A stretch of DNA of 29,403 nucleotides from a virus (lineage: Duplodnaviria; Caudoviricetes), in the IMG/VR virus record IMGVR_UViG_3300032373_000083, positions 1 through 29,403 of that record; one strand, 5' to 3'. A program made the position numbers and the translations under genes. The notes beneath the pieces are model-generated. The model had not been told where the DNA came from, searched no databases, and worked only from the letters and a program-made list of their open reading frames with translations. Position 1 is the first letter of the stretch; each line of letters begins with the position of its first letter. This document shows positions 3,150 to 29,337 of this stretch, one piece after another.

Positions 3150-3530
3150 ATGTCCAAGACTGAAATCTCAAACGAAACACTCATTGCTCTGGTAGAGCGC
3201 GCTACGGGTCAAAAAATCGAGGTGCGCAAGGTCAACGTTGAAACCGAAGACTCGCCCGTCATTGGTCAGCTTTGCGTTGTTCGCACCTATTCTGCGGGTG
3301 TCCATATCGGGACCATCATTGCCAAGAATGGCACTAATGTTCTGCTTGAAGATTCGGTCCGCCTTTGGAAATGGACCGAAGCCTTCACGCTTTCAGAGGT
3401 CGCCACAAAGGGTGTTGGCAAGCAGAGCCGTATCTCGGCGCGGGTTCCCTTGGTCGAACTTTGTCAGGCCATTGAAATTATTCCGACTAGCACGGTTGCA
3501 GCCAAGACCTTTGAGCCACGCAATGCCTAA
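3150..3530 (+). CDS. DUF6948-like phage protein
   Basis: IGQLCVVRTYSAGVHIG...VLLEDSVRLWKW...TLSEVATKGV...AIEIIP matches my recollection of this family. SD AGGAG. Confidence 0.75.
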   Translation: MSKTEISNETLIALVERATGQKIEVRKVNVETEDSPVIGQLCVVRTYSAGVHIGTIIAKNGTNVLLEDSVRLWKWTEAFTLSEVATKGVGKQSRISARVPLVELCQAIEIIPTSTVAAKTFEPRNA

Positions 3531-3735
3531 TCTCTGGACTCACGGCAACGGCGACGGCGACGGCAACGGCGACGGCGACGGCTACGGCTACGGCAGCGGC
3601 GACGGCGACGGCTACGGCTACGGCTACGGCTACGGCAGCGGCGACGGCGACGGCTACGGCTACGGCTACGGCAGCGGCTACGGCTACGGCTACGGCAGCG
3701 GCGACGGCTACGGCTACGGCAGCGGCGACGGCTAA
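3523..3735 (+). CDS. Gly-X repeat protein (70 aa; MPNLWTH followed by (GX)31G, X = Y, D, S or N)
   Basis: ATG overlaps the end of the upstream gene; the TAA is followed by an SD for the next gene. Confidence 0.7.
   Translation: MPNLWTHGNGDGDGNGDGDGYGYGSGDGDGYGYGYGYGSGDGDGYGYGYGSGYGYGYGSGDGYGYGSGDG
3544..3732 (+). repeat. Hexamer tandem repeat GGC-(TAC/GAC/AGC/AAC) x31 plus a final GGC
   Basis: Directly visible in the sequence. Confidence 0.97.
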
Positions 3736-3746
3736 GGGAGACAAAC

Positions 3747-4815: not shown

Positions 4816-5454
4816 ATGAACCGTTCTGAAACAATCGCAACGCTCGCCGCTTCGCTTTGTGCAGCGCAAGCCGAAATGGCGGGCGCGAGCAAGGACAAAA
4901 CCAACCCACACTTCAAGTCAAAATATGCTGACTTGGGGTCTGCGTGGGAGGCCTGCCGTGGCCCGCTTACCAAAAACGGGCTGAGCGTCATTCAGCTTCC
5001 ATCATCGCAAGACGGCTGTGTGCGGATCGAAACCATCCTGTTGCACAAGTCAGGCGAGTTTATCAGTGATACGCTGGCGTTGCCTGTCACAAAACAGGAC
5101 GCGCAAGGCTACGGCTCTGCGATGACTTACGCCCGCCGATATTCGTTGATGGCTGTTGTTGGCATCGCGCCGGAGGATGATGACGCCAATGACTCTATTT
5201 CAGGGGCAACACCCGCCAGTGCCAACGCGCCCGCAAACCCACGCAAGTCAAGCGCCGGCGCAAAGCGCGACGGGGACTATGAGGCCATCAAGGCCGAGAT
5301 TAAAGGCTGCACAAACCCCGACGAATTGAAGGAATGGGGGAAAGCCAACCGCGAGCGTATCAACGCGCTTCCCAAGGCGTTTGAGGACCCCATCCGAGAC
5401 GCATACCAAAACCACATGGAAGACCTGACAATCAAACTTGGAGCAGCAGCATGA
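4816..5454 (+). CDS. erf: ERF-family single-strand annealing recombinase
   Basis: KDKTNPHFKSKYADL...GLSVIQ...LLHKSGE...QGYGSAMTYARRYSLMAVVGIAPEDDD are hallmark ERF motifs. Confidence 0.92.
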   Translation: MNRSETIATLAASLCAAQAEMAGASKDKTNPHFKSKYADLGSAWEACRGPLTKNGLSVIQLPSSQDGCVRIETILLHKSGEFISDTLALPVTKQDAQGYGSAMTYARRYSLMAVVGIAPEDDDANDSISGATPASANAPANPRKSSAGAKRDGDYEAIKAEIKGCTNPDELKEWGKANRERINALPKAFEDPIRDAYQNHMEDLTIKLGAAA

Positions 5455-6107
5455 GTTATAACCACAACAACCCCGCGCCATCGCCTGACGACTTCGCCCA
5501 TGAAGTCGGCGCACTGGAAATGGACGCCGCCAATTTTGAAGGCGTGACCATCACATCCGAAAACGCCGGGGCTTTGCGCGACATTGTAGCGCGCGGCAAT
5601 GACATCAAAAAACGCATGGAAGCAGCCCGCAAGGATGCCAAGCAGCCTCACCTTGACGCTGGCAAGGCGGTTGATGCGGCGTTCAAACCGCCAATCGAAA
5701 ACACAACAGGTATTGTCACAACGGCCAAGTCTCGACTTCAAGCGTATTTGATTGCCGAACAAGAGCGCGAGCGCGCAGAGGCCGAAGCCGCCCGAAAGGC
5801 GGCGGAAGCCCTAAAAGACGACGCAATAATTGGCCAGCGGGTGACAGAGATTGCCGATGCCAAAGCCAAGCAGGCGGAGCAAGCAGGACGTGTCGCCTCC
5901 CAAGACGGCATTGCCAAGGTGGCAAGCCTTCGCACATATCGTTTTGCACAGGTCGATGATGCGACAGCACTGGTCGCTCACTACGCCTCAAACCCTGACA
6001 TGATCGCCCTCGCCGAGAAGCTGGCCAACGCGGACATTCGCGCGGCCAAGGGCGCTGAAATCACCATCCCCGGCGTCACCGTCGCAGAAGAAAAGCGAGT
6101 AGCATAA
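5451..6107 (+). CDS. Coiled-coil phage protein of the recombination module (possibly Gp157/Gam-like)
   Basis: [24 protein letters not shown] and C-terminal IPGV motifs; lies between erf and ssb. Function is inference. Confidence 0.6.
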
Positions 6108-6550
6108 TGGGCAGCGTCAATAAAGTCATCTTGGTGGGCCACCTTGGGGCTGACCCTGAAATCCGCCGCCTCAACTCCGGTGATCCGGTTGTCAATCTCC
6201 GCATTGCCACATCTGAAAGCTGGAAAGACAAGCAATCCGGCGAGCGCAAGGAAAAGACGGAATGGCACAGCGTTGTGATTTTCAATGACCACATCGCCAA
6301 GGTCGCTGAAAACTATCTGCGCAAGGGTTCAAAGGTCTATGTCGAGGGTTCTTTGCAAACCCGCAAATGGCAGGACCAAAACGGCAACGACAAATACTCA
6401 ACCGAGATTGTCTTGCAGAAGTTTCGGGGCGAATTGCAGATGCTCGACAGCAAGGGCGGTGGCGAACAACCCCGCGCACGTCTTGATGATGTGCCTGGCG
6501 GGACAACGCCAAGCAATGATGATCTCGATGATATAATCCCTTTTAATTAA
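6107..6550 (+). CDS. ssb: Single-stranded DNA-binding protein
   Basis: [16 protein letters not shown]...TEWHSVV...[12 protein letters not shown]...DDIIPF. Confidence 0.97.
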
Positions 6551-7060: not shown

Positions 7061-7480
7061 ATGCGCTCTTGGTCAATCCATCTTGATACGCCGAAAGCCG
7101 CAATCTTAGCCAAGGCTGCGGTGGACCGAGCCCTTGCGCGCGGCGGCATGAAGGCCACTTTTGCCGAGCAAAACCGTACCGACGAACAGAATAAGCGCAT
7201 GTGGGCGCTACTGGACATCATCACCGAAGAACGGCCCGTCTGGAATCACTTTCCGATGAACTCGCGCCGCTGGAAAGGCACATTTATGGATGCGCTGGGC
7301 ATGGAGACGGACGCCACGCCAAGCATGGAGGGCGGGAGGGTTATACCGCTAGGCCATAGCACAAGAGAGTTATCAAAGGGCCAGTTTTCGGACCTGTTTG
7401 AAGTTATACACGCATTTGCAGCCCGCGAGGGCATTGACCTGAAAGAACCAACGGAAGGGAAGCACAATGACACCGAATGA
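7061..7480 (+). CDS. ninB: NinB/Orf-family recombination mediator
   Basis: RTDEQNKRMWALLDII...LGHSTRELSKGQFSDLFEVIHAFAA matches NinB. Start at ATG 7061. Confidence 0.85.
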   Translation: MRSWSIHLDTPKAAILAKAAVDRALARGGMKATFAEQNRTDEQNKRMWALLDIITEERPVWNHFPMNSRRWKGTFMDALGMETDATPSMEGGRVIPLGHSTRELSKGQFSDLFEVIHAFAAREGIDLKEPTEGKHNDTE

Positions 7481-7658
7481 AACACATCAACACATCGACC
7501 AGCTTGAGGCTCATATCGACGCAGGCGGAAAGCCGGGGACACATGTCGTTACCGACCTGATCGCCATTATGCGTGATCTGCTTGAGCAACATTCCGACCT
7601 TGAACGGCGTTTCCGTAATTCACGGCTAGCACTTCGCAGGAGTAAACCCAATGACTGA
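7467..7658 (+). CDS. Hypothetical protein
   Basis: Overlaps both neighbours; has an SD. Confidence 0.65.
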   Translation: MTPNETHQHIDQLEAHIDAGGKPGTHVVTDLIAIMRDLLEQHSDLERRFRNSRLALRRSKPND

Positions 7659-8160
7659 TACACCAATGACAGCCGATGAGGTGAGGAAGATTATATTTGC
7701 CTTCACCTCAGTTGACGCCGGGGAAATCCACACTCCACACGGGTCCATCGACCTAAGAGATATGTGCAAAAGATTGGCGAGCTTGGCCGACCTTCTGGAG
7801 CGTAAGGCTCCCGATTATTTGCGCTTGATAATTGACGGCGTGATCTGTGACGCGGTTGAGCGCGGACATTCAACGGGGTCTGACACAGACCGCATCCTTG
7901 CTCTTATCCAGCCAGCCGTGAAGGTGAAGGCGCTGGAGTGGAGGGACGGGCGGGCAGTCACGCCACTTGGCATATACAGCACTGACGAAGCGGACGGGGA
8001 CCGCCGGTGGGTTTGTTTTGATGGTCGTGTCATCGACTCCGACAGCTTCGCCACCCTAGAAACCGCCAAAGCCGCAGCACAGGCCCACTATGACGCGGCA
8101 ATCCGTGAAGCCTTGGAGCCCAGCGCCATGCTCTCCGCCGCCCCTACAGGAGGTGAGTGA
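7651..8160 (+). CDS. Modular accessory protein A1 (Ea/Eaa-like mosaic)
   Basis: Shares the blocks MTxxPMTxDE, TDRILA/IQPAVKVK, TLExAKAAAQxHYDxAIREALEP and AMLSAAPTGGE with 9009-9929. Confidence 0.75.
   Translation: MTDTPMTADEVRKIIFAFTSVDAGEIHTPHGSIDLRDMCKRLASLADLLERKAPDYLRLIIDGVICDAVERGHSTGSDTDRILALIQPAVKVKALEWRDGRAVTPLGIYSTDEADGDRRWVCFDGRVIDSDSFATLETAKAAAQAHYDAAIREALEPSAMLSAAPTGGE
7884..7929 (+). repeat. Junction J1 (copies at 9395-9434 and 9529-9560)
   Basis: 7898-7929 is identical to 9529-9560 (32 bp); 7884-7903 is identical to 9395-9414 (20 bp). Confidence 0.95.
8052..8120 (+). repeat. Junction J2 (copy at 9701-9769)
   Basis: 61/69 identical by manual alignment. Confidence 0.95.
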
Positions 8161-8162
8161 TG
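8123..8162 (+). repeat. Junction J3 (copy at 9892-9931)
   Basis: 40-bp perfect direct repeat GCGCCATGCTCTCCGCCGCCCCTACAGGAGGTGAGTGATG, containing SD, stop and start. Confidence 0.97.
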
Positions 8163-8510
8163 GCCTGTCTTTCAGAACACCACAAACCAAAAGCAGGCGT
8201 CGTGGGGAAATGCTCTGTTCCAATGTGGTGCGGCGGGTTGCCTGCTGGGTTTTGCGACCAGTCCGCTTACGGCGAACAGCGCGCGGAACGCTATCGCGGC
8301 GAAAATCTATCTTACGCATCGGGTTATTGCTGCGCAGGTCACGGTGGTCCGCGAGAGAATGATGTTCGCTTTATGCGTGACGGCGATATGTGGATGGCCT
8401 TCAACCCCGGCTTTGTAAACTTGCAAGAAAGTCCCGCTGGCTTCGGTGAAACGCGAGCAAAAGCGTTGGCCGAATTGAGCGCGCCCCACCCCACCACAGG
8501 AGAAGAATGA
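8160..8510 (+). CDS. Accessory protein B1 (Cys-rich N-domain plus NLQESPAGFG domain)
   Basis: Starts inside J3 (TGATG) and ends inside J4. Confidence 0.75.
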   Translation: MACLSEHHKPKAGVVGKCSVPMWCGGLPAGFCDQSAYGEQRAERYRGENLSYASGYCCAGHGGPRENDVRFMRDGDMWMAFNPGFVNLQESPAGFGETRAKALAELSAPHPTTGEE

Positions 8511-8541
8511 TGAATAAATCAGATGAGCCCGTAACCGGGTC
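8486..8541 (+). repeat. Junction J4 (copy at 10225-10280)
   Basis: 51/56 identical; the last 27 bp, TAAATCAGATGAGCCCGTAACCGGGTC, are identical. Confidence 0.95.
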
Positions 8542-8827
8542 TTCGATGATAGGTCGCCGCATCCGCGTCCAAAAATACACGATGGGCCATCCAACGCATC
8601 AGGAAGACTACATGGTTGAGGAGTTTCGGCACTGCCCCGGGATATTTTTGTCTGAAGCGCATCGTAAGGCAAACGTCTTCACGCCTCTGTGCGAGCTATA
8701 CGATCCCGCACCGGCTGCCGAGAAGGGCTACATTCCAAACTTTGGTGAATACTACGCCGATTGGGTGCAGTCATGGATGGATATTCCGACACCAACCCAC
8801 CCCGAGCAAAGCGAGGAACAACAATGA
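8507..8827 (+). CDS. Accessory protein C1 (MMNKSDEPVTGS...EQSEEQQ)
   Basis: Both termini match 10249-10488; the interior is unrelated. Confidence 0.75.
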   Translation: MMNKSDEPVTGSSMIGRRIRVQKYTMGHPTHQEDYMVEEFRHCPGIFLSEAHRKANVFTPLCELYDPAPAAEKGYIPNFGEYYADWVQSWMDIPTPTHPEQSEEQQ

Positions 8828-8831
8828 CCCT
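8797..8831 (+). repeat. Junction J5 (copy at 10458-10492; partial copy at 10726-10738)
   Basis: 32/35 identical; core GCGAGGAACAACAATGACCCT. Confidence 0.95.
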
Positions 8832-9012
8832 GTATGTCATTTCCTCCGGTTCGTTTTCTGATCGCGAAGTCGAGGCGCGCAACGCAAATGCCGCCCGCTA
8901 TGCGGACTTCAAAGCATTGCGTGAAGCCGGTTATTTCCAAGAGCGAGACGGCTTCCATCGTTACCTGACAGCCGAAAGCCCACGCGCCATGCTGAAAGCG
9001 AGAGACCAATGA
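8824..9012 (+). CDS. Accessory protein D1 (MTLYVISS...RAMLKARDQ)
   Basis: SD GAGGA inside J5; ATGA overlaps at both ends. Confidence 0.7.
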   Translation: MTLYVISSGSFSDREVEARNANAARYADFKALREAGYFQERDGFHRYLTAESPRAMLKARDQ

Positions 9013-9929
9013 CTGAACCAATGACAACCGATGAAGCCACGGGAGACGTCTATTTTGTCCGCAAGAATGGGTATTATTATCGTCCTAACTCGCGCGGATA
9101 CACATCCTCCCCCTGGGAAGCCGGTCGATACTCCAAAGAAGATGCCGAAACTCACATCGACGAACGCGCTGGCGTCTCTATCGTGCGGGCAAGCGAAGTT
9201 ATGCCCGACATGCTGGATAGCCAATCAGAAGACGCTTGGGACAAACTGCGCGATGAAATTGTAGGCGCATTTATTGCCGGAGCAAAAGGCACCCATGACG
9301 CTTTGCGCGAAGACCCCGATAATCTGACCGACCCTGATCCTAATTTTAAAGAGGCAGCGTATGACTATTTTGCTGCGCTCGAAGTAAACGGTCGCACAGA
9401 CCGCATCCTTGCTCGTATCCAACAGCCAGCCGTGGATAGAGAGGCTGTGAAGCGCCATCTTGAGCGCATGGCATCCACCGGCAACACCGGCAGCTTGGAG
9501 GAGTGGGGCGAGTTTTCGAACGCCATCATTGCTCTTATCCAGCCAGCCGTGAAGGTGAAGCCTTTGCGTTGGCATGATAGGCCGAGCGAGTCTGTTAGCC
9601 ACCATTCAAGCGGCCTCTTTGAGGAATACAAAATTGATTGGCATGGCCCCGACGAATTTTACCTCTCGTACAGACACGTTGGCTTTGATACCACATTCCT
9701 CACCCTAGAAGCCGCCAAAGCCGCAGCACAGCGTCACTACGACAACGCAATCCGTGAAGCCTTGGAGCCTGTTTCTGACGGCATGGTGATGGTTTCGCGT
9801 GAACCGACTGACACCCAACTTGATCGCGCACTTCATTCGTTAGGTTCGCCCAACCCCAAGGAAAGCAAGGTTTGGCTCCGCGCATTCTACCGCGCCATGC
9901 TCTCCGCCGCCCCTACAGGAGGTGAGTGA
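9009..9929 (+). CDS. Modular accessory protein A2 (Ea/Eaa-like mosaic, 306 aa)
   Basis: Same conserved blocks as A1 with different and additional modules, including a VSDGMVMVSREPT...YRAMLSAAP module. Confidence 0.8.
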   Translation: MTEPMTTDEATGDVYFVRKNGYYYRPNSRGYTSSPWEAGRYSKEDAETHIDERAGVSIVRASEVMPDMLDSQSEDAWDKLRDEIVGAFIAGAKGTHDALREDPDNLTDPDPNFKEAAYDYFAALEVNGRTDRILARIQQPAVDREAVKRHLERMASTGNTGSLEEWGEFSNAIIALIQPAVKVKPLRWHDRPSESVSHHSSGLFEEYKIDWHGPDEFYLSYRHVGFDTTFLTLEAAKAAAQRHYDNAIREALEPVSDGMVMVSREPTDTQLDRALHSLGSPNPKESKVWLRAFYRAMLSAAPTGGE

Positions 9930-10252
9930 TGTGGGATTTTTGCACACACTCAACGCCGGTAGCACGAAAACCGCATGTTTGTGGAGATTGCCGCAAGCCC
10001 ATCGCCGTTGGCGAGAAGTACCACCGCGTTTCCGGCGTTTGGGAGGGCGCAATGACCTCTTACAAGAGCCACCTAGATTGCGCGTTTTGCTGCGAGGAAA
10101 TCCGCAAGGTCAATCATTTGGATGATGGGGATGATTACCCGCACCCTGACAACTTTGAAATCGAAGATTGGGAGTGGCTTGTCAAAACCCACCCAAAACG
10201 CAGCGCCCGATTGATGACCGCATACCATCCCACCACAGGAGCAGAGAGATGA
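9929..10252 (+). CDS. Accessory protein B2 (Zn-binding ARKxHxCxxC...HxxC type)
   Basis: Starts inside the J3 copy and ends inside the J4 copy. Confidence 0.75.
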   Translation: MWDFCTHSTPVARKPHVCGDCRKPIAVGEKYHRVSGVWEGAMTSYKSHLDCAFCCEEIRKVNHLDDGDDYPHPDNFEIEDWEWLVKTHPKRSARLMTAYHPTTGAER

Positions 10253-10488
10253 GTAAATCAGATGAGCCCGTAACCGGGTCCGTGTCCTCGGCTTCGCCTG
10301 CGGGCCAGTTGTTGCGTAGGGCGACAGCCTTGCGCGTCTCGCTAGGGCAACGCACGCCGATCCGGGCCGGTTTAACCTATGAGGTGATCACGGTCGATAT
10401 TGGAGAGGTCTTGGCTTTAGCGCGCCTACTAGAGGACACGCTTGTCTTGTTGGCTGACCACACAGAGCAACGCGAGGAACAACAATGA
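10249..10488 (+). CDS. Accessory protein C2 (MSKSDEPVTGS...EQREEQQ)
   Basis: Termini are J4 and J5. Confidence 0.7.
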   Translation: MSKSDEPVTGSVSSASPAGQLLRRATALRVSLGQRTPIRAGLTYEVITVDIGEVLALARLLEDTLVLLADHTEQREEQQ

Positions 10489-10733
10489 CCCTTATACAAA
10501 CATATGTCTTAGCATCTTCAATCTCTGGAGCGATGCTTACCCCACTTGTGCTGTTCTCTGGCGAAAAGGAAGAACTTGCGCGGCTAAGCCCGTTTCATAT
10601 CGGCTTGGGGTTCGTGGGGTTTTCGGGGCTCGGTTTTGCGCTTGGAATGATACTAACCCCCGCCATCATTGGGTACTGGCTATGCAAGATTATCGGGTTG
10701 GCGATCCTTGCTATTCGAGGGGTGAAACAATGA
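10485..10733 (+). CDS. Accessory membrane protein D2 (2-3 hydrophobic segments)
   Basis: Starts inside the J5 copy; highly hydrophobic. Confidence 0.7.
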   Translation: MTLIQTYVLASSISGAMLTPLVLFSGEKEELARLSPFHIGLGFVGFSGLGFALGMILTPAIIGYWLCKIIGLAILAIRGVKQ

Positions 10734-10947
10734 CCCTGAAGCCGTATATGCTGGCCTTGTTTATTCCGTCATCCACGAGACAGGCGGGCGCATATTCTCA
10801 CGCCATGTCATCGCCCAAAGCTGGGAACAGGCAGAGGAACAATGCGGTCCCGGTGAAACCGTTGACGGGCAGATTGAAGCCATACTCCCCGATGACGGGG
10901 CAGCAGAACAATTCAAGCGCAACCTGAAGGGCAAGGAGATAGGGTGA
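10726..10947 (+). pseudogene. Probable frameshifted gene: start-less frame NNDPEAVYAGLVYSVIHETGG...KGKEIG* lies at -1 relative to ATG 10730
   Basis: Translated by hand. The frame looks protein-like and its TGA overlaps the next ATG (TGATG). The frame opened by ATG 10730 stops at 10927. Confidence 0.5.
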
Positions 10948-11162
10948 TGGAGCAGGCACAGGTTAATGCCGAAGCCGCCGCATGGGCTCGCGTCAAAGCC
11001 GCCGAGCGCAGATGGCTCGACATGCTTGGCAGACCCGTAGATCACCTGTGCGACGAGTGCTTAGACCGCCACACTAGGGCGACCCACGCGCTTCATCTCG
11101 CTGCACAGGCCGAGCGGCGGAAATATGACGCTTGGGGCAGAACCCTTAACGAACAAAAGTGA
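10947..11162 (+). CDS. Hypothetical protein, last gene of the rightward operon
   Basis: SD AAGGAG; MEQAQVNAE... Confidence 0.6.
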   Translation: MEQAQVNAEAAAWARVKAAERRWLDMLGRPVDHLCDECLDRHTRATHALHLAAQAERRKYDAWGRTLNEQK

Positions 11163-11174
11163 CAGGGATAGAGC

Positions 11175-11333
11175 CTAACCAATCATGCTGACATTGCACG
11201 TTGTACGGTACACTTCGCCATGACCTAGCGCCGCAGCCGCCTTGCGCAAACTGCCGTGTTCAATCCATGCCTGAATCTTCTCTGTCTGCTTTTCAGTGGT
11301 GCAGAAATCCAACAATCGGGGATCGGGGACCAT
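11175..11333 (-). pseudogene. 52-aa ORF MVPDPRLLDFCTTEKQTEKIQAWIEHGSLRKAAAALG|HGEVYRTTCNVSMIG, a likely internally deleted remnant
   Basis: Translated by hand. The HTH start (HGSLRKAAAALG) breaks off mid-motif. The two ends recall the termini of phage HTH-metallophosphoesterase proteins (recollection, unverified). Confidence 0.45.
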
Positions 11334-11336
11334 ACG

Positions 11337-11681
11337 CTAGCCTTCAATCCGCTCTAATTCTTCACGCAGCATCGCAAGGACGCGCTCGTTGTCTTCACGG
11401 TCAGGGTCATCAAAGGCCATCGCCTCTAGCCGCTTTTCCGTGGTCGTGATCTGAAACTCTAGCGCGGACGCCCTATCGCGCCGGTCAAGCCTTTCATCAA
11501 TGATAAGCGTGGCGAGGGATTCAACCCGTTCATCCAGCACATCGACGGTGACGTATTCAGGGAAGGCCCAAAAGCCAGCGAGATTGGAAATCACACCGCC
11601 CGTTGCCGTAAGCAACGCCGCGATTGCCCCAATCAGGACCGCCCATTGGTTAGGGCTATTCGGGGGCTTCAGTGTTGGCAT
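11337..11681 (-). CDS. Membrane-anchored coiled-coil protein at the end of the lysis cassette
   Basis: Start MPTLKPP with SD GGAG; TM segment WAVLIGAIAALLTATGGVI. Confidence 0.65.
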   Translation of the reverse strand: MPTLKPPNSPNQWAVLIGAIAALLTATGGVISNLAGFWAFPEYVTVDVLDERVESLATLIIDERLDRRDRASALEFQITTTEKRLEAMAFDDPDREDNERVLAMLREELERIEG

Positions 11682-11919
11682 CGGCCCACTCCCTGATCCT
11701 GTCCAAGCGACCGGCGCAAATATCCAGCGCCTCAATCAAATCGGTGCGGTGTTCCACCAGGTCGCGCGTTGTCTCTATAGACCGCACAGGGCGCTCACAG
11801 GGGAGCGTCAGCGCCTTGGGGGGCGTCACCCTCACTGTCTCCGTTCTCGTCAACAGGCGAGGGGTTGAGCAGCCCGCGCAAAGCATCAGGCACAGGCTCG
11901 TCGAGATAATCCGCAACAT
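11656..11919 (-). CDS. o-spanin (Rz1-like lipoprotein)
   Basis: Signal peptide with lipobox CAGC, Pro-rich PPKALTLPCERP and a second Cys; overlaps the i-spanin out of frame. Confidence 0.8.
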   Translation of the reverse strand: MLRIISTSLCLMLCAGCSTPRLLTRTETVRVTPPKALTLPCERPVRSIETTRDLVEHRTDLIEALDICAGRLDRIREWADANTEAPE

Positions 11920-12226
11920 CGTCATTGTTCCTAGCTGCATCGTCTATATCCGCTCGCCGTGTGTTGGCTTGTGAACGAATGGCCCGCTCGCGTTCGAGGG
12001 CATCGACAAGCAGTCTATCCAGCGTGTCGGCTTCCTGTTGGAGTTTGGCGATGGCTTCCTGATTGGCGTCGTTGGCTTCAACCGCGATTGCGAGATCCGC
12101 TCGTGTCTCTGACAGGCGTTCCGAAGCAGAAGACCACAGAAGAAAAAATGCGCCCGCAAGGGCAAATGCGCTCCCCGTCGCAATGATGAGGATTTTGCCC
12201 CATAAGCTAGACAGGATGTTCAACAT
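11795..12226 (-). CDS. i-spanin (Rz-like)
   Basis: N-terminal TM, long coiled coil and a YLDEPVPDALRGLL tail; overlaps the lipoprotein gene. Confidence 0.8.
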   Translation of the reverse strand: MLNILSSLWGKILIIATGSAFALAGAFFLLWSSASERLSETRADLAIAVEANDANQEAIAKLQQEADTLDRLLVDALERERAIRSQANTRRADIDDAARNNDDVADYLDEPVPDALRGLLNPSPVDENGDSEGDAPQGADAPL

Positions 12227-12227
12227 G

Positions 12228-12671
12228 TCACCACCATTTAGTTAGCATTAGAACGCCAAACGCGATGAAGCCGGACGCAATAATCGCTCCGACCGCGACA
12301 TTTAATTCGCGGCGCGAGAAGCCTTCCTGCACCATCATGGATGCTCGAATGTGGCCGTAAGCCGCCATCACGACCATGATTTCACGCGATGGAATGTTGG
12401 CGACGACGCCCCATGAAATCAGCGCGTTTGTGAAGGGCCAGCCATAAAAGTGTGCCAGCCACGCCACGCCCCAATATGCGCCGTCTAGTAACTCACCGAG
12501 AAAGCCGATGAAGATACCGCCCGCGATCCAATCGCGCGGCTGTGCCTTGGAAAACTGACCGGTGAAGACATAAGAAAAAGTGCCATGATACCGGGACAGC
12601 ACCCACCCGCAGAAGATTAGCGCGGGGAGGGTGAGGCCAATGGATAGAGCCTCAAGAACTTCGCGCAGCAT
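12228..12671 (-). CDS. Multi-pass (about 4 TM) membrane protein in the lysis cassette
   Basis: Four hydrophobic segments; lies between the holin candidate and the spanins. Confidence 0.65.
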   Translation of the reverse strand: MLREVLEALSIGLTLPALIFCGWVLSRYHGTFSYVFTGQFSKAQPRDWIAGGIFIGFLGELLDGAYWGVAWLAHFYGWPFTNALISWGVVANIPSREIMVVMAAYGHIRASMMVQEGFSRRELNVAVGAIIASGFIAFGVLMLTKWW

Positions 12672-12837
12672 TGCCAACACCTTCTAGCAGGGCATCCAGA
12701 AGGCGCGCGGTTTGTTGTTTCTCGTTGGCCTTTTTCATCACTTCGCCTTTCAACTCGTTCAACTGGCCCGCAAGGCTGCGTATCTCGTCGCGGTAGGCGT
12801 CGTGTTTGTCGGTTTTGCGTTTTCCGTTAAGCGGCAT
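12652..12837 (-). CDS. Small coiled-coil hypothetical protein
   Basis: Overlaps both neighbours. Confidence 0.6.
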   Translation of the reverse strand: MPLNGKRKTDKHDAYRDEIRSLAGQLNELKGEVMKKANEKQQTARLLDALLEGVGNAARSS

Positions 12838-13015
12838 CGACTTGCCCCTTCAGGTCTTTCCAAAGGTCAATCTGTGCCTTCAGGTTTTCAAGGTACTCCC
12901 GCTCCGCTTCCCGCCGCCCATCGACCTCCTTGCGCCATAGCCAGAAGAACAGGCCAGCCAGCGCGAAGCCGGGGCCATTTTCGAGGGCGTATGAAACGAC
13001 TTGAGCGTCCATCAT
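12827..13015 (-). CDS. Putative single-TM holin-like protein
   Basis: GPGFALAGLFFWLW followed by a charged coiled coil (BhlA-like layout); ATGA-coupled to the endolysin. Confidence 0.55.
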   Translation of the reverse strand: MMDAQVVSYALENGPGFALAGLFFWLWRKEVDGRREAEREYLENLKAQIDLWKDLKGQVDAA

Positions 13016-13425
13016 GAATACTGCCAAAAAGCTGGACGCTTACCCGACCGCGCGTAGTCGTGGTTATCGTCAAGGTGAATGAAAGAGGGTTTGTTCACGC
13101 CAATGCCAAGGAAGCGGAACTCAAAGGCCAGAGAGATCAGCCCGTACCAATCGCCGTTAGCCGGTGCGATGTCAGCCGCCCAGCCGCCCGAATGATTGCC
13201 CTTGCCGCCAATCGAGCGATCATGTTCCGGTGTGCGATACCAAGAATTGACGCGGATTGGTGAGCCGAAGTCCCGGCGCAATTCGTCGAGGCGAAGCCCA
13301 AACGGCTTGTGCAGAACAATGGACCCGTCACGACTGTCTGACACTTCCTCTGGTGAGAAGAATGTCAGGGGCCATTGGTCTGGGGCAACATCGCGCCAGT
13401 GTCGGAATCGCAGAACGTCAGGCAT
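13012..13425 (-). CDS. Endolysin, peptidase M15 family zinc peptidase
   Basis: SWYRTPEHD..IGG..NH..GWAADI...FIHLD Zn-binding motifs. Confidence 0.88.
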   Translation of the reverse strand: MPDVLRFRHWRDVAPDQWPLTFFSPEEVSDSRDGSIVLHKPFGLRLDELRRDFGSPIRVNSWYRTPEHDRSIGGKGNHSGGWAADIAPANGDWYGLISLAFEFRFLGIGVNKPSFIHLDDNHDYARSGKRPAFWQYS

Positions 13426-13428
13426 GGA

Positions 13429-15363
13429 CTAACCCCCGCCTTCGAGGGCATCAAGCCGCTCACTTAGCTTATTGATTGCCGCAACAAACATGCCCTGCAT
13501 TTCCAAAGGTCGCAGAAAATGCCGGTCCTCGCCCTTGTCGTATTGGTAAACCGCAAAGTCCTCGATACCCGCTTCCGTCATCGCCGCCTTGACTTGCTGG
13601 GCAAACAAACCGGCGTGTGGCCTGCCGTGTGAAACGACACCCTCTGGAACATCGACTAGATATTTTTCCTCGTACTCAACCTCTCGCTCAACCGGAATAT
13701 ATTTCTCTGGATTGCCGGGGTCTGGCTCCATCGTCGTTTCGGTTCGCGTCGCTTTGCGGATAGCCTCTTTCGTGTGCGCCGGAATGACCGTATCTTTGAA
13801 CGAATACCAGTGCGCATCCAGCGCGCCGATGAAGCTCAACGCCTGATCCCCGTCAATCAAGCCAAGGTCATCTTTTCTGCGCTCGTCGGAAACCGTGACA
13901 GCGTTCTGAACGTAAAGGTTGTCCCATTCCAAACTTGTCGAACCCAAGTCCAACGACTCTGTTGCGGACGGAAGAAAATCTAACCCGGCCTTTATGTCCG
14001 TGGTCGAAATCATCAAGTCGTTTGCTGTGCCGACACCAAACCGCAGATCGACATTGTTTTGCGATTCGAACAAAACGTGCGCCCCACTCGCCGCTGTGCC
14101 AACCTTAAGGGCGCTAGACCCAACATGCTGAACCTCCCACGCCGTATCGCCAATGGCAGCCATCTTTGTAATGTACCAAGGGGATGCGCCGCGCGGCACA
14201 TGGACGGCGTTCTGAATCACTCGGTTCGTGGTATTCGTGGAATTGTCTGTGACGGTCGCAGCGGTCGCATTTTGCGCCCAGATCGTGTTATTTGTCGCGC
14301 TTGCACCAAATGTTATCGCCGTAACCGCATATTGCGCGCGAACCTCACAGCGAGTCGTGCTTGCGGCCAGAACAATTGACGTGGCGCTAAAATCGCCGCG
14401 CAGAACGTGCCCGCTGCCCGAAATTGTCAGCGCAGAAGGGTTAGATATCCGGCTGCCCTCGTCGATGTAGCAATAAATACTGTCTGCGTGGAAATCTATG
14501 CCCTGCGCCGAGCATCCAATGATGGACGTGACGCGAGCCGCATTGAGTTCCATTATCTTGTGACCGCCCGCGTGCAGCCCGATAAAGCGCCGTATGCCGT
14601 TGGTAGACAACTCCGTTGCAGGGCCAGAAATTGCGGGGTCAGTCGTCGTGGTGCAGCCAAACTCGCCACCAATCCAAGCGAAGTTAGTCCCGCCCGTTGC
14701 GCCTGCCCCGTCATCCTTGAAGTCCACGCACGGGCCGGCGCAATTGACGATCTCAAAATCTATAAACCGTTGGTTGTTCTTACCAACCGGGACGTTGACG
14801 CCGTTTCCGGTGTAGGTCGAGCCGTCGCCATTCATCTTGCCATTCATCAGTACCGCGTCGGTCCCGATGTCGAACATGTCACCGTTGAAGCCCTTGGTAA
14901 TTGTGCGCCCGGCAAAGTCTAAAGTGAACTCGTTGGGAATCGTTACCTTGTTCGCCAGCGTGAAATTGCGGGTTAGTCGAACATAAGCAGCCCCCGCCGC
15001 AATAGCAGATTCAAGCCTTTCAGTGTCGTTAGCTCCCGCGTACTGATCCAGTGATCCGATAACATCCGTCGATGACGTGTAATCGTTTACAGTCCATACC
15101 GTCGCGCCGTCCGCATCCTTGAGAACAAGGGTCAGCAATGCGCCTGACCAAAACACGTTTGAGACAATGCCGGAGCCATTTGCAAAGAAGCCCTGCGTAT
15201 TTGCGACAAGCGGATTCGGGAGTGCTGTAGAAAGCCCCGTATCGCTGTATATCGCCACCTCGGTTGTGGTTCCGTTTGCGTAAAAATACAGGCTCGCATT
15301 CGGGACAACATTGCCGTTAAGGTCAATCGCTTGAAGCGTTGGATTCTTGAATGATGCACTCAT
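13429..15363 (-). CDS. Tailspike/tail fibre: virion-anchoring N-domain, beta-helix and C-terminal intramolecular chaperone (peptidase S74)
   Basis: NGNVVPNASLYFYANGTTT...NPLVAN anchor; GANDTERLESAI beta-helix start; SDERRK cleavage motif, GLFAQQV and a terminal coiled coil. Confidence 0.85.
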   Translation of the reverse strand: MSASFKNPTLQAIDLNGNVVPNASLYFYANGTTTEVAIYSDTGLSTALPNPLVANTQGFFANGSGIVSNVFWSGALLTLVLKDADGATVWTVNDYTSSTDVIGSLDQYAGANDTERLESAIAAGAAYVRLTRNFTLANKVTIPNEFTLDFAGRTITKGFNGDMFDIGTDAVLMNGKMNGDGSTYTGNGVNVPVGKNNQRFIDFEIVNCAGPCVDFKDDGAGATGGTNFAWIGGEFGCTTTTDPAISGPATELSTNGIRRFIGLHAGGHKIMELNAARVTSIIGCSAQGIDFHADSIYCYIDEGSRISNPSALTISGSGHVLRGDFSATSIVLAASTTRCEVRAQYAVTAITFGASATNNTIWAQNATAATVTDNSTNTTNRVIQNAVHVPRGASPWYITKMAAIGDTAWEVQHVGSSALKVGTAASGAHVLFESQNNVDLRFGVGTANDLMISTTDIKAGLDFLPSATESLDLGSTSLEWDNLYVQNAVTVSDERRKDDLGLIDGDQALSFIGALDAHWYSFKDTVIPAHTKEAIRKATRTETTMEPDPGNPEKYIPVEREVEYEEKYLVDVPEGVVSHGRPHAGLFAQQVKAAMTEAGIEDFAVYQYDKGEDRHFLRPLEMQGMFVAAINKLSERLDALEGGG

Positions 15364-17996
15364 GGTACAGCCCTCAAAGCGTTAGGATTGGAAAGGATGG
15401 ACGGCTCTGGCACATCAATAAGACCGCCCTCAATAAATGAGGCCAGATCGGCGCTCTCTTCCTGAGAAAACGCCACATCGTCAGCCAACCGGCCCATAAA
15501 ATTGATGCCGCGCAGCGTTGATTGCGGAACTCGCACCCCTGAACCAATCAAAAGATTGCGGCCAGCATTGGAAGTCAAAATGCGCCCAATCCACATGGTA
15601 GGCAAAAGGGCAAGGGCATCCCCGATTCCCCGTATGCTCGAAACCGATGTTGTACCTGACATAGCGCCGCCAATATCAGTCGTTGACTGCGATATAATCG
15701 AGTTGACCAACTCGACATTATTCAGCAGTGCCATATCTGCATCTGTAAGCAGGTCCGTCACACCGCGTGCGCGTGCGTTACTGATGGCCCGCGTCAAGCG
15801 TGCTTGATTTACGGCTTGTCCACGCGCGTTTGTGTCAACCACCCCGTTGATAATTGATTCAATCGCGGACGCCCGAACAGCTCTGCCCGGCGATGTTTCC
15901 GCCCAACTGTCAACACCTCGACGGTTGGCAAGGTCTGTAAGGCTATCAATAATTGCAGCCGTGCGCCGAGATGGGATGCTGCCTCGCAACAAGCCTTGTA
16001 TGAATGCGTCTGCGCTCTCCTGTGCGGCGGCAATTTGAGGAATATCCGTTTGCCTCAAACGCTCAATGGACCTTGCCGTGCGATTCACTGCATCCATCTC
16101 ATTGCGCGTAAGCATCATGCCAAGTGTGGACTCATTGCGGCCCTGATACTGTGCCAACCGCTCCGGCAGATTCATAACGTCCCTGAGAAGGTCCGCCTTG
16201 AAACCGTTTGTAATTTCTTGCCAAGCAGCAGCGCCTTGCTCCCCGCTGGAATCCAGAATGCGGCGAAGGTCGCGCACTTGGTCAACATTGCCCGGCTGCA
16301 AAAACCGCTCTGCCATTTGGTAAGGACGGTCGCTGCGAGCGATTTCAACAATCGTGCTTTGGTCAAGGTTGGAAAACCGCTGCGCCGCCGCCTCTTGTGC
16401 AGACCTCCAAGCGCGCAAAGCATCCGGCCCAACAGGATATGTGACACCATCAGCGCCAATTTGCGCTATCGGGCTGTCCATTGCCTCACCTAGAGCAGCA
16501 CGAAGCTGGTTTGCGGTCGCGGCAGGAAGGCGGACGCCCTCGACGCCCGGTTGTGACATATCGTGCAAAGCGCCGCGAAGCCTGAGCAAATCTTCAACGC
16601 CCATTTCGGCATGGTCAATCTCTCGCCAAGCAGCAATAAACCGTCTAAGGGGGGCCGTCCCTTCGGGGTCAACCTGAACCGGACTCCCGTCCCTCCCCGG
16701 CAAGGGGCGCAGTTGGTTTTGTTCGATGCGGTCGATAGCCTTATTAACCGCAGCCACATTAAAGCGGAAGTCCCCACCAGCGCGTGCAGCAGTATAGAGA
16801 GCGTCAACCGCCTCGCGTGATGTTGCTTCGTAGACCTCACGTCCAGCACGGATCGCCGCGCCGACTTCCTCCACAGGAATGTCCGTGACACCCAAAGATG
16901 CGCGCAAATCCCCCGCAAACGCCTGGTTCAATTCTTGCGTAGCGTCCATCAATTCCTGTCGCGCCGTTCCCGCCGTCGCGGGGTCGCTAATGCTTTCCAG
17001 TGCGTTGACAAGAACTTCGTTTTGTCGCTGCGCATAATTGTTGATGCGCGGCCAAATGCGAGAAGCAACAGACGATATACGCTTGATAATTTCGGCTGGA
17101 CCTTGGCGGACGACCTGTTGCGGCATAAGGCCGACACGCTCAGTTGACGCACCCAACCATGCAGGCGTGCGCGGAGCGCCCGGCAAATCTGCCAGCTCCC
17201 TCATTGCCTCAGCCGCTTCCATGCCCTGTTCCGAAACGCCCATTGGACCAGTTTGAACCATTCGGCCAATAATGGATTCCAGACCGAAGCCCGCTGCGCC
17301 GCCGAGACCGCCTGCAATGCCGCTGCCGACAACTTGTTGCGCTTGGCCTCCGATGTCTTGCGCCTGAACACCCTGAACGCTTTGCACGCCCTGTCGAACA
17401 GCCTCACCACCCGCACCGCCAACAGCACCAGCACCGACATACCTAAGCAGCTTTAGAACACCCGACAGTACTGCGCTGCCTCCCCTTGTGGCGATCAATG
17501 CCGCACTCTCTGCAGCAAGTTGTTCCGCCCCCGGCGCAAGAATGTTCGCTGCGCGGTTTCCCAACTCAAGCGTGCCTGCAGCGACCGTGTTTGGAATCAT
17601 CATAGCGCCATCAGATTCCTCCATTGGCTCAGCGAGGGTTTCAGCCATTGTCGGGCTGACAAAAGACACCGGATCATCCGGCGACCTGCGCCACGTTGGG
17701 CGACCTTCTGTCATAACGGACGCGGGATAATACTCGGCTTCTGGATACTCTCGACGAAGGCGCATTTGGCGCTCTGCATCATTGTCGGCGCGCGCCATGC
17801 TGATGCGAGAGGCATCCCCGCCATACTGAGGCAGGTAATCACGCGCAATGTTTTCTGCGGGGCGCTGGTTGCTTCCAGACAGCCCTTCAAGTATGCGCTC
17901 TGTCATTGCAGCCGCATCGCCCGTGTCTTCAGAAGCACTTTGCTGCTCCAAGATGCGGCGTGTCATTTCATCGGCGGATTGGTCCTGCACTGGCAT
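15360..17996 (-). CDS. Large internal virion/DNA ejection protein (gp16 position)
   Basis: 878 aa, Ala/Gly-rich and helical; last of the ejection cluster. Call is by position. Confidence 0.65.
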   Translation of the reverse strand: MPVQDQSADEMTRRILEQQSASEDTGDAAAMTERILEGLSGSNQRPAENIARDYLPQYGGDASRISMARADNDAERQMRLRREYPEAEYYPASVMTEGRPTWRRSPDDPVSFVSPTMAETLAEPMEESDGAMMIPNTVAAGTLELGNRAANILAPGAEQLAAESAALIATRGGSAVLSGVLKLLRYVGAGAVGGAGGEAVRQGVQSVQGVQAQDIGGQAQQVVGSGIAGGLGGAAGFGLESIIGRMVQTGPMGVSEQGMEAAEAMRELADLPGAPRTPAWLGASTERVGLMPQQVVRQGPAEIIKRISSVASRIWPRINNYAQRQNEVLVNALESISDPATAGTARQELMDATQELNQAFAGDLRASLGVTDIPVEEVGAAIRAGREVYEATSREAVDALYTAARAGGDFRFNVAAVNKAIDRIEQNQLRPLPGRDGSPVQVDPEGTAPLRRFIAAWREIDHAEMGVEDLLRLRGALHDMSQPGVEGVRLPAATANQLRAALGEAMDSPIAQIGADGVTYPVGPDALRAWRSAQEAAAQRFSNLDQSTIVEIARSDRPYQMAERFLQPGNVDQVRDLRRILDSSGEQGAAAWQEITNGFKADLLRDVMNLPERLAQYQGRNESTLGMMLTRNEMDAVNRTARSIERLRQTDIPQIAAAQESADAFIQGLLRGSIPSRRTAAIIDSLTDLANRRGVDSWAETSPGRAVRASAIESIINGVVDTNARGQAVNQARLTRAISNARARGVTDLLTDADMALLNNVELVNSIISQSTTDIGGAMSGTTSVSSIRGIGDALALLPTMWIGRILTSNAGRNLLIGSGVRVPQSTLRGINFMGRLADDVAFSQEESADLASFIEGGLIDVPEPSILSNPNALRAVP

Positions 17997-19351
17997 TATT
18001 CGGCCTCCGCAGCGCCAGCCATTTGAGCGCGTGTGATCTGCAAAGCAACTCTGATAGCCTCGGTAATTTGCTCTTCGCTAAAACCTGCCGCGCTCATTGG
18101 GCCGGTAATTCGCTCAGTAACAACTGTCGCATCAACTCCCCCATCTGCATTTATAAACGGATAGGGCATCGTCCCGCGAGAAAGCAACGCTTGACGGTTT
18201 GCGGTTGTAATTGCCAATGGATAAGACATGGCGAGCCCCTCCATAGCGCGCGTGCGAGTGGAAAGGTTTTCTGTGACGCCCACTATTTCGGCGGCAATCG
18301 CGCGCTCTTCTGCGGTAATCCGCCCCGACTCTTCCCCTGTGAACAAGGCAACAGACTGCGCCACATTAACCTGCGTTATGGCGCGCAACGCCGCTAAGTC
18401 GTCGGCTGTAGCGCCCGAAATAACCTGAGCGACATTTGACCCAGCATCCCGCCCCAAAACTTGCTCGACAACGCCCGCCGCTCCTCCGGCCAAACCGCCT
18501 AACCAACCAAAAGCACCCGTTGGTGAATTTGACACAGCGTCAGCGGCAAGCAAAATTGTCGATGCTTGGTCCTCGGCTGCGGCTCGCGCCTCAACCGCTC
18601 TGTCCCTAGCGCCCCGCCCCTCCATCGCTTGCCCGCCTGCAACCGCAGCGGCCAGATTGCTTACACCCCGCCCAAGAGCGCCAAGGCCGCTATCACTAAG
18701 CGGGGCTGTATTCCCGACCGGCGTTACCTGACCATTTGCCAGATTTACCTGATACGTTCCCCGTCCACCAGCAGGATAGCGCGGATCACCTCGCTCGATG
18801 CGCTCGTATCGTGCGGGCGTCTCTGTAGTCGCTGCGAACTGGCCCAACCGCTCTTGTGCCTCTTCAACAGAAATGTTCAAACGGCTTGCAACACCTTGCG
18901 CCACTATCCCAGCGTCCCGACCGGATGCAACCGCCTGCGCGCCATTCTGAAAGATTGTGTTCTCACGCTCTTGCTGAGCCTGTGTTTGACGTTGGCGCGC
19001 ATCAATAAAGCGAAAGGCGTTCGCCTGCTCTTCACGAGGAAGCTGCGCAGCCAACGATACCTGCTCTTCGTATGAGAGGGGCCGTGGAGCCGCTGGGGCT
19101 TCCTGTGCTGGCGGGATAGCACCGCCAACCCACCCACCGTCAAACGACGCCTGAAAGGGTTCTGATTGCTCGCTTTGAGGCCCTGTGCCGCCAACAAGCA
19201 GGTTCATAATCTCACCAGTACGGCGTGCCTGTGCCTGTGCAGCCGCTTGCTCCATTTGAGCCGCTTGCTGCGCCAAACGCCGATCCGAAGCATCGTTGAA
19301 CGCGCCGATAAAGGCGGGTCCAGGCTGTGCCATGATGGAAATACGAGACAT
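17996..19351 (-). CDS. Internal virion/DNA ejection protein (gp20 position)
   Basis: Start MSRISIM by TAATG overlap; Ala/Gln-rich. Confidence 0.65.
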   Translation of the reverse strand: MSRISIMAQPGPAFIGAFNDASDRRLAQQAAQMEQAAAQAQARRTGEIMNLLVGGTGPQSEQSEPFQASFDGGWVGGAIPPAQEAPAAPRPLSYEEQVSLAAQLPREEQANAFRFIDARQRQTQAQQERENTIFQNGAQAVASGRDAGIVAQGVASRLNISVEEAQERLGQFAATTETPARYERIERGDPRYPAGGRGTYQVNLANGQVTPVGNTAPLSDSGLGALGRGVSNLAAAVAGGQAMEGRGARDRAVEARAAAEDQASTILLAADAVSNSPTGAFGWLGGLAGGAAGVVEQVLGRDAGSNVAQVISGATADDLAALRAITQVNVAQSVALFTGEESGRITAEERAIAAEIVGVTENLSTRTRAMEGLAMSYPLAITTANRQALLSRGTMPYPFINADGGVDATVVTERITGPMSAAGFSEEQITEAIRVALQITRAQMAGAAEAE

Positions 19352-20073
19352 TAACCGAACATCTTCCCTAGCGAATTGCCAAGCCCACCCCAAGGGATAC
19401 CACCCAAGGCGTTGCCCCAAATCGAACCCTGCGCGTTAGCGCCTGCGCCGCTGATATTGCCGAGGTTAGCCGTCAAATCACCGCGCGCACCCATAAGCTG
19501 CCCCATCGTTCCAGCGCCCATTCCGGCAAATCCGCCGAAGTCTGTTGGCTGTGACAGGCCCGCGATACCAGCCATGCGATTGTAATAGTTGCCGTATTCA
19601 CCAGCCGCCAAGCCCTGTCCGTATTGCGTGATGTCGCGCAACTGGTTGCCAGACATAAGCATTCCGCGTGACGCTGCCGAGGAATCAAGGTTTCGAATGC
19701 CCTCATTCAAACGGAACTGGTAATCAGGCGATGTGAAGAAACGGTCAAACGCTTCCCGCTGCCGGTCATCGGTGAAGTTATAGCCCGGCCCGCCCATGCC
19801 ATTCGGGGTCATGTGTTCAGGAGGTTGACCGCCGCCCGTTTGAGGTTCGATACCCGGTTGCTGCGTTATTCCTTCGCCGCCGCCCGGTGTGCCGCCCGTC
19901 TGCACGTTGACACCCGGAGGAACACCCGTTTGCCCCGGTGGCTGCGTGCCGCCCGTTACAGGAGGATTTGTAGGCGTGCCGGTATAGCCGCCGCCAAACC
20001 TGTTGATGTTGGGGTCAATCTGGTCATACGGGCCTTCGCCGCGACCGCCGCGATAGTTTTCAAGATAGGGCAT
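19351..20073 (-). CDS. P22 gp7-like DNA transfer protein, C-terminal half
   Basis: SPDYQFRLNEG...SAASRGMLMSGNQLRDITQYGQGLA.GEYGNYYNR motif. Confidence 0.75.
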   Translation of the reverse strand: MPYLENYRGGRGEGPYDQIDPNINRFGGGYTGTPTNPPVTGGTQPPGQTGVPPGVNVQTGGTPGGGEGITQQPGIEPQTGGGQPPEHMTPNGMGGPGYNFTDDRQREAFDRFFTSPDYQFRLNEGIRNLDSSAASRGMLMSGNQLRDITQYGQGLAAGEYGNYYNRMAGIAGLSQPTDFGGFAGMGAGTMGQLMGARGDLTANLGNISGAGANAQGSIWGNALGGIPWGGLGNSLGKMFG

Positions 20074-20552
20074 TAGTATATCTGCCTCATAAGTCCGCCG
20101 TCAGGATTTCTTGGCCCAGCCCCCATATGCGGGTCAGCGTTTGCGTAAAAGCCGCCCGGTGGAACATAATTGGCAAGGAAGTTCGTGATATTATTGTTCC
20201 CGCCCGGCTGCGCGATACCTTGCGCGCCCGGTATATTGGTCGCAGGGTAGAAGTCAGCAGGCCCGCCCAAGCTGTCCGGTGTCGGGGCCGCGTAAATATC
20301 GCCAAGCCCGTACAAATCCGTGATCTGCTGCAAAGCCGAGTTCGAACCGCGTTGACGAGGGTAATTCGCCATCGCCATATTGTTCATCATCTCACGCTGG
20401 AAATCGAGATTCTGATTGGCAATACGCTCTTGAGCGGCATAGCCCTCACGCGAGATATTTGCTTGGTCGCGGGACGCGCTCTTCTGACTGTTGGACTGAA
20501 ACAATCCACCAAGAACAGAGCCCGCAATCGGGGCAAGAAGGTTCCAAATCAT
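20073..20552 (-). CDS. P22 gp7-like DNA transfer protein, N-terminal half
   Basis: IAGSVLGGLF.SNSQKSASRDQ...FQREM...P....GSNSALQQI..LYGL. Confidence 0.65.
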   Translation of the reverse strand: MIWNLLAPIAGSVLGGLFQSNSQKSASRDQANISREGYAAQERIANQNLDFQREMMNNMAMANYPRQRGSNSALQQITDLYGLGDIYAAPTPDSLGGPADFYPATNIPGAQGIAQPGGNNNITNFLANYVPPGGFYANADPHMGAGPRNPDGGLMRQIY

Positions 20553-21925: not shown

Positions 21926-21926
21926 T

Positions 21927-22268: not shown

Positions 22269-22277
22269 GTTTCGCTC

Positions 22278-24690: not shown

Positions 24691-24692
24691 GA

Positions 24693-27999: not shown

Positions 28000-28013
28000 T
28001 TATGGCCTCCATG

Positions 28014-28036
28014 AAAACGGGGGCTCGAAGCCCCCG
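28014..28036 (-). terminator. Intrinsic terminator
   Basis: CGGGGGCT-TCG-AGCCCCCG followed by TTTT. Confidence 0.75.
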
Positions 28037-28040
28037 CCAG

Positions 28041-28337: not shown

Positions 28338-28360
28338 ATTGGCCTCCGTTTAAGCGGGAG

Positions 28361-28388: not shown

Positions 28389-28402
28389 ATAATTCACCTG
28401 AC

Positions 28403-29326: not shown

Positions 29327-29337
29327 CTATTTGCTCC

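Follow-up and report, generated by a model that had tools for sequence, protein, structure and literature searches.

What keeps short blocks of DNA alike, and in fixed order, in a row of phage genes whose interiors differ? The question is raised by an array of small genes in a tailed-virus record (IMGVR_UViG_3300032373_000083), the whole of which (29,403 nucleotides, 29.4 kb; CheckV completeness 45%) was analyzed here and is called the window. The array consists of two units, A1-B1-C1-D1 and A2-B2-C2-D2, in which the same blocks (linkers J0 to J5) recur around different sequence. We consider it probable that the blocks, which several co-occurring phages have in common, are boundary (linker) sequences of the lambdoid type in a mosaic early gene region, where they act as homology handles for swaps by phage single-strand annealing. 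The linkers, their order, the differing interiors and the breakpoints of similarity at linkers were observed directly; from these we infer the mechanism of exchange.

Linkers and interiors of the two units

We compared the window copies of the linkers by BLASTN and by listing exact matches. All six blocks of an earlier note on this DNA (J0-J5) were recovered at the identities given there and in the same order in both units. Not in that inventory were a further, partial copy of J1 within A2, the J5 stub at 10726, and the linkers JK and Jm, both of which stand out only against relatives (records with L numbers, described below).

7648-7679 (+): J0 copy 1, stop/start overlap and first codons of A; 28/32 against copy 2, with a 3-nt gap
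9006-9034 (+): J0 copy 2
7786-7823 (+): JK, linker within A1; single in the window, DNA copies in L004, L008, L010 and L019
7884-7941 (+): J1 copy 1, start of the portable domain; exact core 7898-7929
9524-9560 (+): J1 copy 2; the J1 pair is 97% identical over 37 nt, with an exact core of 32 nt (7898/9529)
9395-9434 (+): extra partial J1 within A2
8052-8120 (+): J2 copy 1, codes for the C-terminal helix of the domain; 61/69 against copy 2
9701-9769 (+): J2 copy 2
9768-9811 (+): Jm, linker within A2; single in the window, common with relatives
8123-8162 (+): J3 copy 1, end of A, purine run like a ribosome-binding site (RBS), stop/start; 40/40 against copy 2
9892-9931 (+): J3 copy 2
8486-8541 (+): J4 copy 1, end of B, RBS-like run, first codons of C; 51/56 against copy 2, exact over 27
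10225-10280 (+): J4 copy 2; likeness to L003, L004 and L019 continues to ~10291-10309
8797-8831 (+): J5 copy 1, end of C, RBS-like run, start of D; 32/35 against copy 2, exact over 21
10458-10492 (+): J5 copy 2
10726-10947 (+): J5-like stub of 12-13 nt, its ATG in another frame, then a gene body without a start in the conserved frame

Every block lies in frame within coding sequence. Stop/start overlaps occur in J0 and J3-J5, a purine-rich RBS-like run occurs in J3-J5, and J3 and J4 share a core. The linkers are called junctions in the earlier note; J0 to J3 all lie within the single gene A.

Two side observations concern the edges of the units. At the end of D1, an 11-nt match to the J3 core (8983-8993) lies directly 5' of J0 copy 2 and is either chance or a remnant. 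The gene body at 10726-10947 has a homologue at L003:10239-10469 (score 250 over 64 aa), and the ATG at 10730 in its J5-like stub is in another frame; this gene is likely broken, and the off-frame stub looks like a failed product of array joining.

The genes of the array, and the domain encoded between J1 and J2, are as follows.

7651-8160 (+): A1, mosaic gene of the form J0-JK-J1-domain-J2-J3
7885-8121 (+): J1-J2 domain, beta strands and C-terminal helix, unnamed and widespread; AlphaFold2 pLDDT 82
8160-8510 (+): B1, Cys-rich; C-terminal half similar to the D-position gene of L003 (z 8.9, 0/200 shuffles)
8507-8827 (+): C1; L009 holds the same cargo after a fused J3/J4, with 113/113 nt of the interior
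8824-9012 (+): D1, 62 aa, without family match
9009-9929 (+): A2, mosaic gene; J0-JK segment 98% like L008, Jm-J3 segment 85-86% like L009 and L019
9929-10252 (+): B2, two CxxC pairs; phrog_7314 (unknown function)
10249-10488 (+): C2; same cargo in L003, 97% over 161 nt
10485-10733 (+): D2, 82 aa, hydrophobic, without family match

Protein comparison of unit 1 with unit 2 against 200 shuffles gave z values of -0.1 (B1/B2), 0.0 (C1/C2), -0.1 (D1/D2) and, for A1/A2 between J1 and J2, -0.4. Uniform decay of a tandem duplication to 60-70% identity is expected to leave 4e-5 to 5e-3 perfect runs of at least 32 nt per 1360 bp; at 80% identity 0.2 such runs are expected, and interiors at 80% would still align. 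Since the perfect 32-nt runs lie far above expectation and the interiors cannot be aligned, uniform decay cannot yield the pattern, as the earlier note had argued. Its description of the interiors as unrelated holds for the B, C and D slots but fails between J1 and J2, and its membrane label for D2 has as its sole basis a hydrophobic sequence, no predictor having been run.

The J1-J2 interiors are divergent versions of one domain and thus paralogous, which for this slot is half of what the earlier note had named as refuting its reading. The 79-residue J1-J2 stretch was modelled at pLDDT 82 as strands plus a helix, J2 being the helix, and the interiors contain a Tyr that is invariant in 11 sequences. 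(A full-length model of A2, at pLDDT 48.5, was too poor and was set aside.) A profile search with the domain found 858 longer proteins at E<=0.001, some with two copies of the domain and some also carrying DUF551 (P0120 by PF04448, P0080 by name); the 11 J1-J2 domains themselves had no match to DUF551 or to Ead_Ea22 (PF13935). The domain had no match in the PDB at E<=0.001; its best match in a viral library (E 0.003) was uncharacterised or unnamed, and Atlas matches were below 0.9 and unnamed. The J1-J2 slot is a portable, highly variable unnamed domain, versions of which are exchanged, and not unrelated cargo. The locus exposes this domain of ~70 residues, found in hundreds of mosaic phage-type proteins.

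Linkers and cargo in other phages

Relatives were gathered through A2, through an alignment of nine A proteins and through junction DNA patterns, which together gave 13 distinct other records. Ten of the 13 contain at least three linkers as DNA, with other DNA between them and the order nearly always kept; the exceptions are Jm after J3 (L006), part of J2 doubled (L003) and J4 doubled (L004). Of the remaining three, L001 has no linker at threshold, L002 has one and L007 has two weak ones. The L002 gene (3694-4452) is ORF44 of Brucella phage Tb, which carries the J1-J2 domain with a J2 identical at 36/40 nt. Further junction DNA patterns brought no additional relatives save one (L017/L019), and an exact J3 24-mer had 0 occurrences in IMG/VR. 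Among GenBank phages, only 43 records match 7400-11200, and the 30 matches listed are all of about J2 length.

L004 is a complete 45-kb record with no DNA match to window positions 11000-29403 and no match to the window capsid protein. Despite this unrelated virion module, its linkers agree with those of the window at 32/32 nt (J3) and 52/54 nt (J4).

The earlier note had expected different cargo between the same pair of junctions in other phages, and this is what we found. Six copies of the J4-J5 slot hold four unrelated interiors: C1 (window and L009), C2 (window and L003), a Cys-rich open reading frame (L004) and a hydrophobic one (L019); among the 15 pairs, relatedness is limited to two (100% and 97%). 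The number of genes in the B slot (J3 to the start of C) is zero in L009 and L019, where J3 is fused to J4, one in both units of the window, two for L003 and three for L004. In L010 a single gene lies between J3 and a 5' half-copy of J4, and behind it comes the gene that stands first in the B slot of L003. The C-terminal half of B1 (window 8160-8510) is homologous to L003:9324-9557, the gene in the D position, and cargo families are therefore not bound to one slot. The variable number that the earlier note had anticipated was seen in the B slot (0 to 3 genes) but not for whole units: a second unit was found in none of the ten linker-rich relatives, five of which are cut off by contig ends (in L005, L008, L009 and L012 the contig stops inside A or C or shortly behind, and in L010 after ~0.8 kb).

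Across all inter-junction segments, 12 of 196 pairs are related (76-100% identity), and the closest partner differs by segment. Segment J0-JK of A2 is 98% identical to L008, JK-J1 of L008 is 96% identical to L019, J1-J2 of L004 is 95% identical to L006, and Jm-J3, for which the partners are A2, L009, L019 and L001, is 96% identical between L009 and L019. The integrase regions of L008 and L019 are 96% identical, and what separates these two records is that segments delimited by J0, JK and J1 have been exchanged or lost. Similarity between phages breaks at linkers, with different modules on either side. The linkers themselves fuse (J3/J4, J3/J5), are skipped, or double (J1, J2, J4); the J3/J5 joint is found at the end of protein P0003, where J3 is joined directly to J5, and on an X1 contig (the assemblies are described below).

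Conservation, site structure and assembly

Identical residues in five A-gene motifs use the same codon in 754/930 pairs (81%), against 33% expected from the codon use of the window. The count covers nine of 12 A-type genes; L005, L012 and the Tb gene were left out, the motif patterns having mostly missed them. The corresponding figures are 32/35 for A1 and A2 and 37/44 for A1 and L004, and J3 reaches a codon-level identity of 96% (175/182). In six diverged homologous pairs used as a control (NinB/annealing-type), 34-58% of codons are the same. The synonymous sites are far from the saturation that, according to the earlier note, would mark conservation at the protein level only. Because the codon agreement also holds towards L004, which shares no virion-module DNA with the window, selection on the proteins alone fails as an explanation. 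The linkers are conserved as DNA beyond the needs of the proteins.

Several points weigh against exchange by annealing. The backbone genes of the close relatives L003 and L009 are nearly as alike as the linkers, with the same codon in 106/134 pairs for SSB and in 37/49 and 40/54 for gene Z (74-79%), so common descent explains those pairs and the informative cases are records such as L004. The codon pairs behind the figure of 754/930 are not independent of one another, exact identity stays below 30 nt in several linkers, and the J2 of Brucella phage Tb, at 36/40 nt, indicates that a protein motif plus codon taste can produce high DNA identity there. No recombination event was observed, contigs and not raw reads having been the basis, and no annealing gene was seen beside the arrays of L004, L008 and L019, where none was sought. 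Random recombination, if its in-frame products survive, could contribute as well.

One alternative is an ancient tandem duplication or a paralogue family whose interiors diverged in place, the blocks having been preserved solely by selection on protein motifs and translation signals. All blocks lie in frame in coding sequence or overlap an RBS or start, as this account would have it, and the J1-J2 interiors are of similar length (37-50 aa), keep the invariant Tyr, are weakly alike in some pairs (z 4-5) and share one fold; the domain motifs are also found in distant Alphaproteobacteria. Unsaturated synonymous sites argue against it, as do interiors with 95-100% identical partners in other phages, a different partner for each segment, and C interiors that vary in kind (soluble, Cys-rich, hydrophobic) and in length (166-326 nt). 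We regard such a duplication as improbable; it is largely refuted for J3-J5, and a contribution at J1 and J2 may remain.

The earlier note had favored an integron-like slot system. In that or any other site-specific cassette system, each linker would be the recognition site of a dedicated enzyme, which would suit the order retained in most loci and the codon-level identity of J3. A gene of the tyrosine-integrase family lies ~0.5-2 kb from the array in L004, L008 and L019; PF00589 was not found in the window record, and in a record only 45% complete a missing integrase proves nothing. The integrase genes of the relatives probably stand at the usual prophage int position, however, and the linkers do not have the structure of such sites. 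The attC pattern RYYYAAC...GTTRRRY had 0 matches in 7400-11200, no folding signal was found at the linkers (hairpin z -0.7 to +1.5), Rfam had no match, and promoter and terminator matches were at the chance level of shuffled sequence (3 vs 2.5 and 5 vs 5.0, respectively). There are eight linkers unlike one another rather than one repeated site, their edges are ragged, and many lie mid-gene. With ragged breakpoints, fused J3/J4 and J3/J5, doubled J1, J2 and J4 and no relative that has two units, the integron-like proposal does not stand, and we judge a site-specific system of any kind to be very unlikely. The array is not a new cassette machine.

The two-unit layout could also be an assembly chimera of two one-unit strains joined at repeats. 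The analysis of joints rests on assembled contigs from four mat runs; the runs that best hold the window are labelled microbial mat metagenome, and no RNA run is among those listed as holding it. Among the joints listed, contigs connect consecutive linkers by way of different sequence or diverge from the window at a linker edge, and the excision joint from 8162 to 9932 that the earlier note had suggested is not among the contig joints shown. A chimera would agree with the absence of two units from the ten relatives (several cut short), with the lack of any contig spanning the entire array, and with an X3 contig that joins 7897 to 9529 through J1 and gives a one-unit form (protein P0002). Against it, single contigs span the D1-A2 border in 4/4 runs, 9187-9558 connects on to J1 copy 2 in X1 and X2, and the whole of A1 and the whole of A2 are present on three and four contigs, respectively (JGI, ENA). 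A chimera, which we hold to be highly improbable, would leave the sharing of linkers between phages untouched.

The X3 contig was considered as an excision product but is not taken as one: its joint lies in the 32-nt J1 core, which is about the word size of these assemblies (presumably 31), and the sequence from B1 to the start of A2 is present in X3 at like depth. The contig may represent a one-unit variant, or it may be an artefact of the assembly graph. Contig depth over 8133-9216 (B1-C1-D1 and the start of A2) is above that of the flanks (10.3 vs ~6 in X1, 29-36 vs ~23-28 in X2), as though a second phage shares this segment.

Genomic setting and known systems

The plus-strand operon of the window runs from Erf through exonuclease, SSB, an HNH-type endonuclease, NinB and gene Z to the array; the minus-strand arm carries capsid, head-closure, DNA-ejection, tail and lysis genes.

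4816-5454 (+): Erf single-strand annealing protein, candidate recombinase; Pfam ERF 3e-24, phrog_2324 6e-42
5451-6107 (+): exonuclease; phrog_10477 4e-23
6107-6550 (+): SSB; Pfam SSB 1e-37
7061-7480 (+): NinB/Orf recombination mediator; Pfam NinB 5e-15
7467-7658 (+): gene Z, 63 aa, upstream neighbor of the array; also 5' of A in L003 and L009

At the position of the window Erf gene (4816-5454), the close relatives L003 (5361-6038) and L009 (54-779) have a Rad52-family annealing gene, and the recombinase itself has therefore been swapped. Elsewhere in the window, a hexanucleotide repeat coding for (GD/GY/GS)n (3530-3740) lies behind a DUF6948 gene and also occurs, at varying length, in L003, and the tail gene region (24732-27427, including internal repeats) has short patches of 79-90% identity in common with the otherwise unrelated L019. 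Named holders of the J1-J2 domain come from Brucella, Agrobacterium, Xanthobacter, Afipia and Falsigemmobacter, and for this reason the phage host is likely an alphaproteobacterium; in GTDB genomes, 0 relatives were found by protein and 0 by the J3 pattern, so no host was found in this way.

In the mechanism that we propose, protein motifs and stop/RBS/start overlaps would keep the linkers usable, in that a crossover in like linkers would stay in frame and be translated, and repeated exchange would hold the linker DNA alike. Exchange would take place during mixed infection or with prophages, through the Erf, exonuclease and NinB encoded next to the array or through Rad52-type proteins in the relatives. 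Where unlike linkers have a core in common (J3/J4/J5), a crossover between them would delete or double slots, and the two units of the window would have arisen from the joining of a second array at J0, behind D1, rather than as a decayed tandem copy. No dedicated site-specific enzyme would be needed. Boundary sequences combined with relaxed single-strand annealing, which the earlier note had cited as drivers of mosaicism, are the best-fitting mechanism.

A more sweeping idea, which seems doubtful to us, is a combinatorial grammar of the whole community: unrelated phages of one host group would keep at least eight ordered DNA linkers under selection for exchange itself, cutting accessory genes into interchangeable parts of 60-330 bp, with a hypervariable binding domain among them, from which annealing proteins would assemble new host-interaction proteins one part at a time.

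The locus touches the old question of whether mosaic borders come from conserved linkers or from random joining followed by selection. It offers a dense, testable case outside enterobacteria, with eight linkers, single-segment partners 95-100% identical and a candidate recombinase next door. This kind of mosaicism is known; new are the gene family, the likely alphaproteobacterial phages, the eight ordered linkers and the clear partner switching. A literature search that covered few subscription papers found nothing on the A gene family in alphaproteobacterial phages, and the available portions of PMC8022706 and PMC9836094 contain nothing on linkers.

Lambdoid boundary or linker sequences go back to primary papers by Susskind and Botstein and by Clark et al. 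2001. Like integron gene cassettes, the array is a row of small unrelated genes in one direction; unlike integrons, it has no attC pattern, hairpin or single repeated site, and its junctions lie inside genes. T4-type PeSL cassettes (PMC2839356) likewise have short repeats between non-essential genes, with modules inserted, deleted and replaced, but a PeSL is one non-coding promoter-terminator repeat (a sigma70 promoter and a terminator stem-loop), whereas the linkers here are coding and mutually unlike. The A genes stand behind Erf-exo-SSB-NinB in the window and beside an integrase gene in L004, L008 and L019. In this they resemble the Ead/Ea22 genes of the exo-xis region, which are mosaic early accessory genes between recombination genes and int/xis with blocks shared patchwise (PMC10834534); A1 and A2 have no Ead_Ea22 or DUF551 match at E<=0.05 and are not members by Pfam, though they would work like them.

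Relaxed Rad52-like systems (PMC3945230, PMC2327257) are matched by the Erf, exonuclease and Orf/NinB genes directly upstream of the array and by the Rad52-family genes of L003 and L009. On DNA of 78% identity, the Erf protein of phage D3 was as effective in recombination as lambda Red; together with its exonuclease, Erf acts on diverged DNA in the manner of lambda Red, and the Red pathway is helped by Orf (PMC3945230); the minimal homology is ~30 bp (PMC2327257). Published 'shoulders' have a median of 200 bp at ~64-68% identity (PMC3945230, PMC2327257), whereas the linkers here have 20-70 bp at 85-100%.

Lambdoid boundary sequences have been proposed to give rise to mosaic joints, although they are absent from most mosaic borders (PMC3029335). 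Like them, the linkers are short conserved DNA at module borders, common to different phages, for which homologous crossover has been proposed (PMC3029335), and the array lies in the early region behind an annealing gene. Unlike them, the linkers of this array form an ordered series of at least eight, five or six of them within one gene, and their carriers are mat phages whose virion modules are unrelated.

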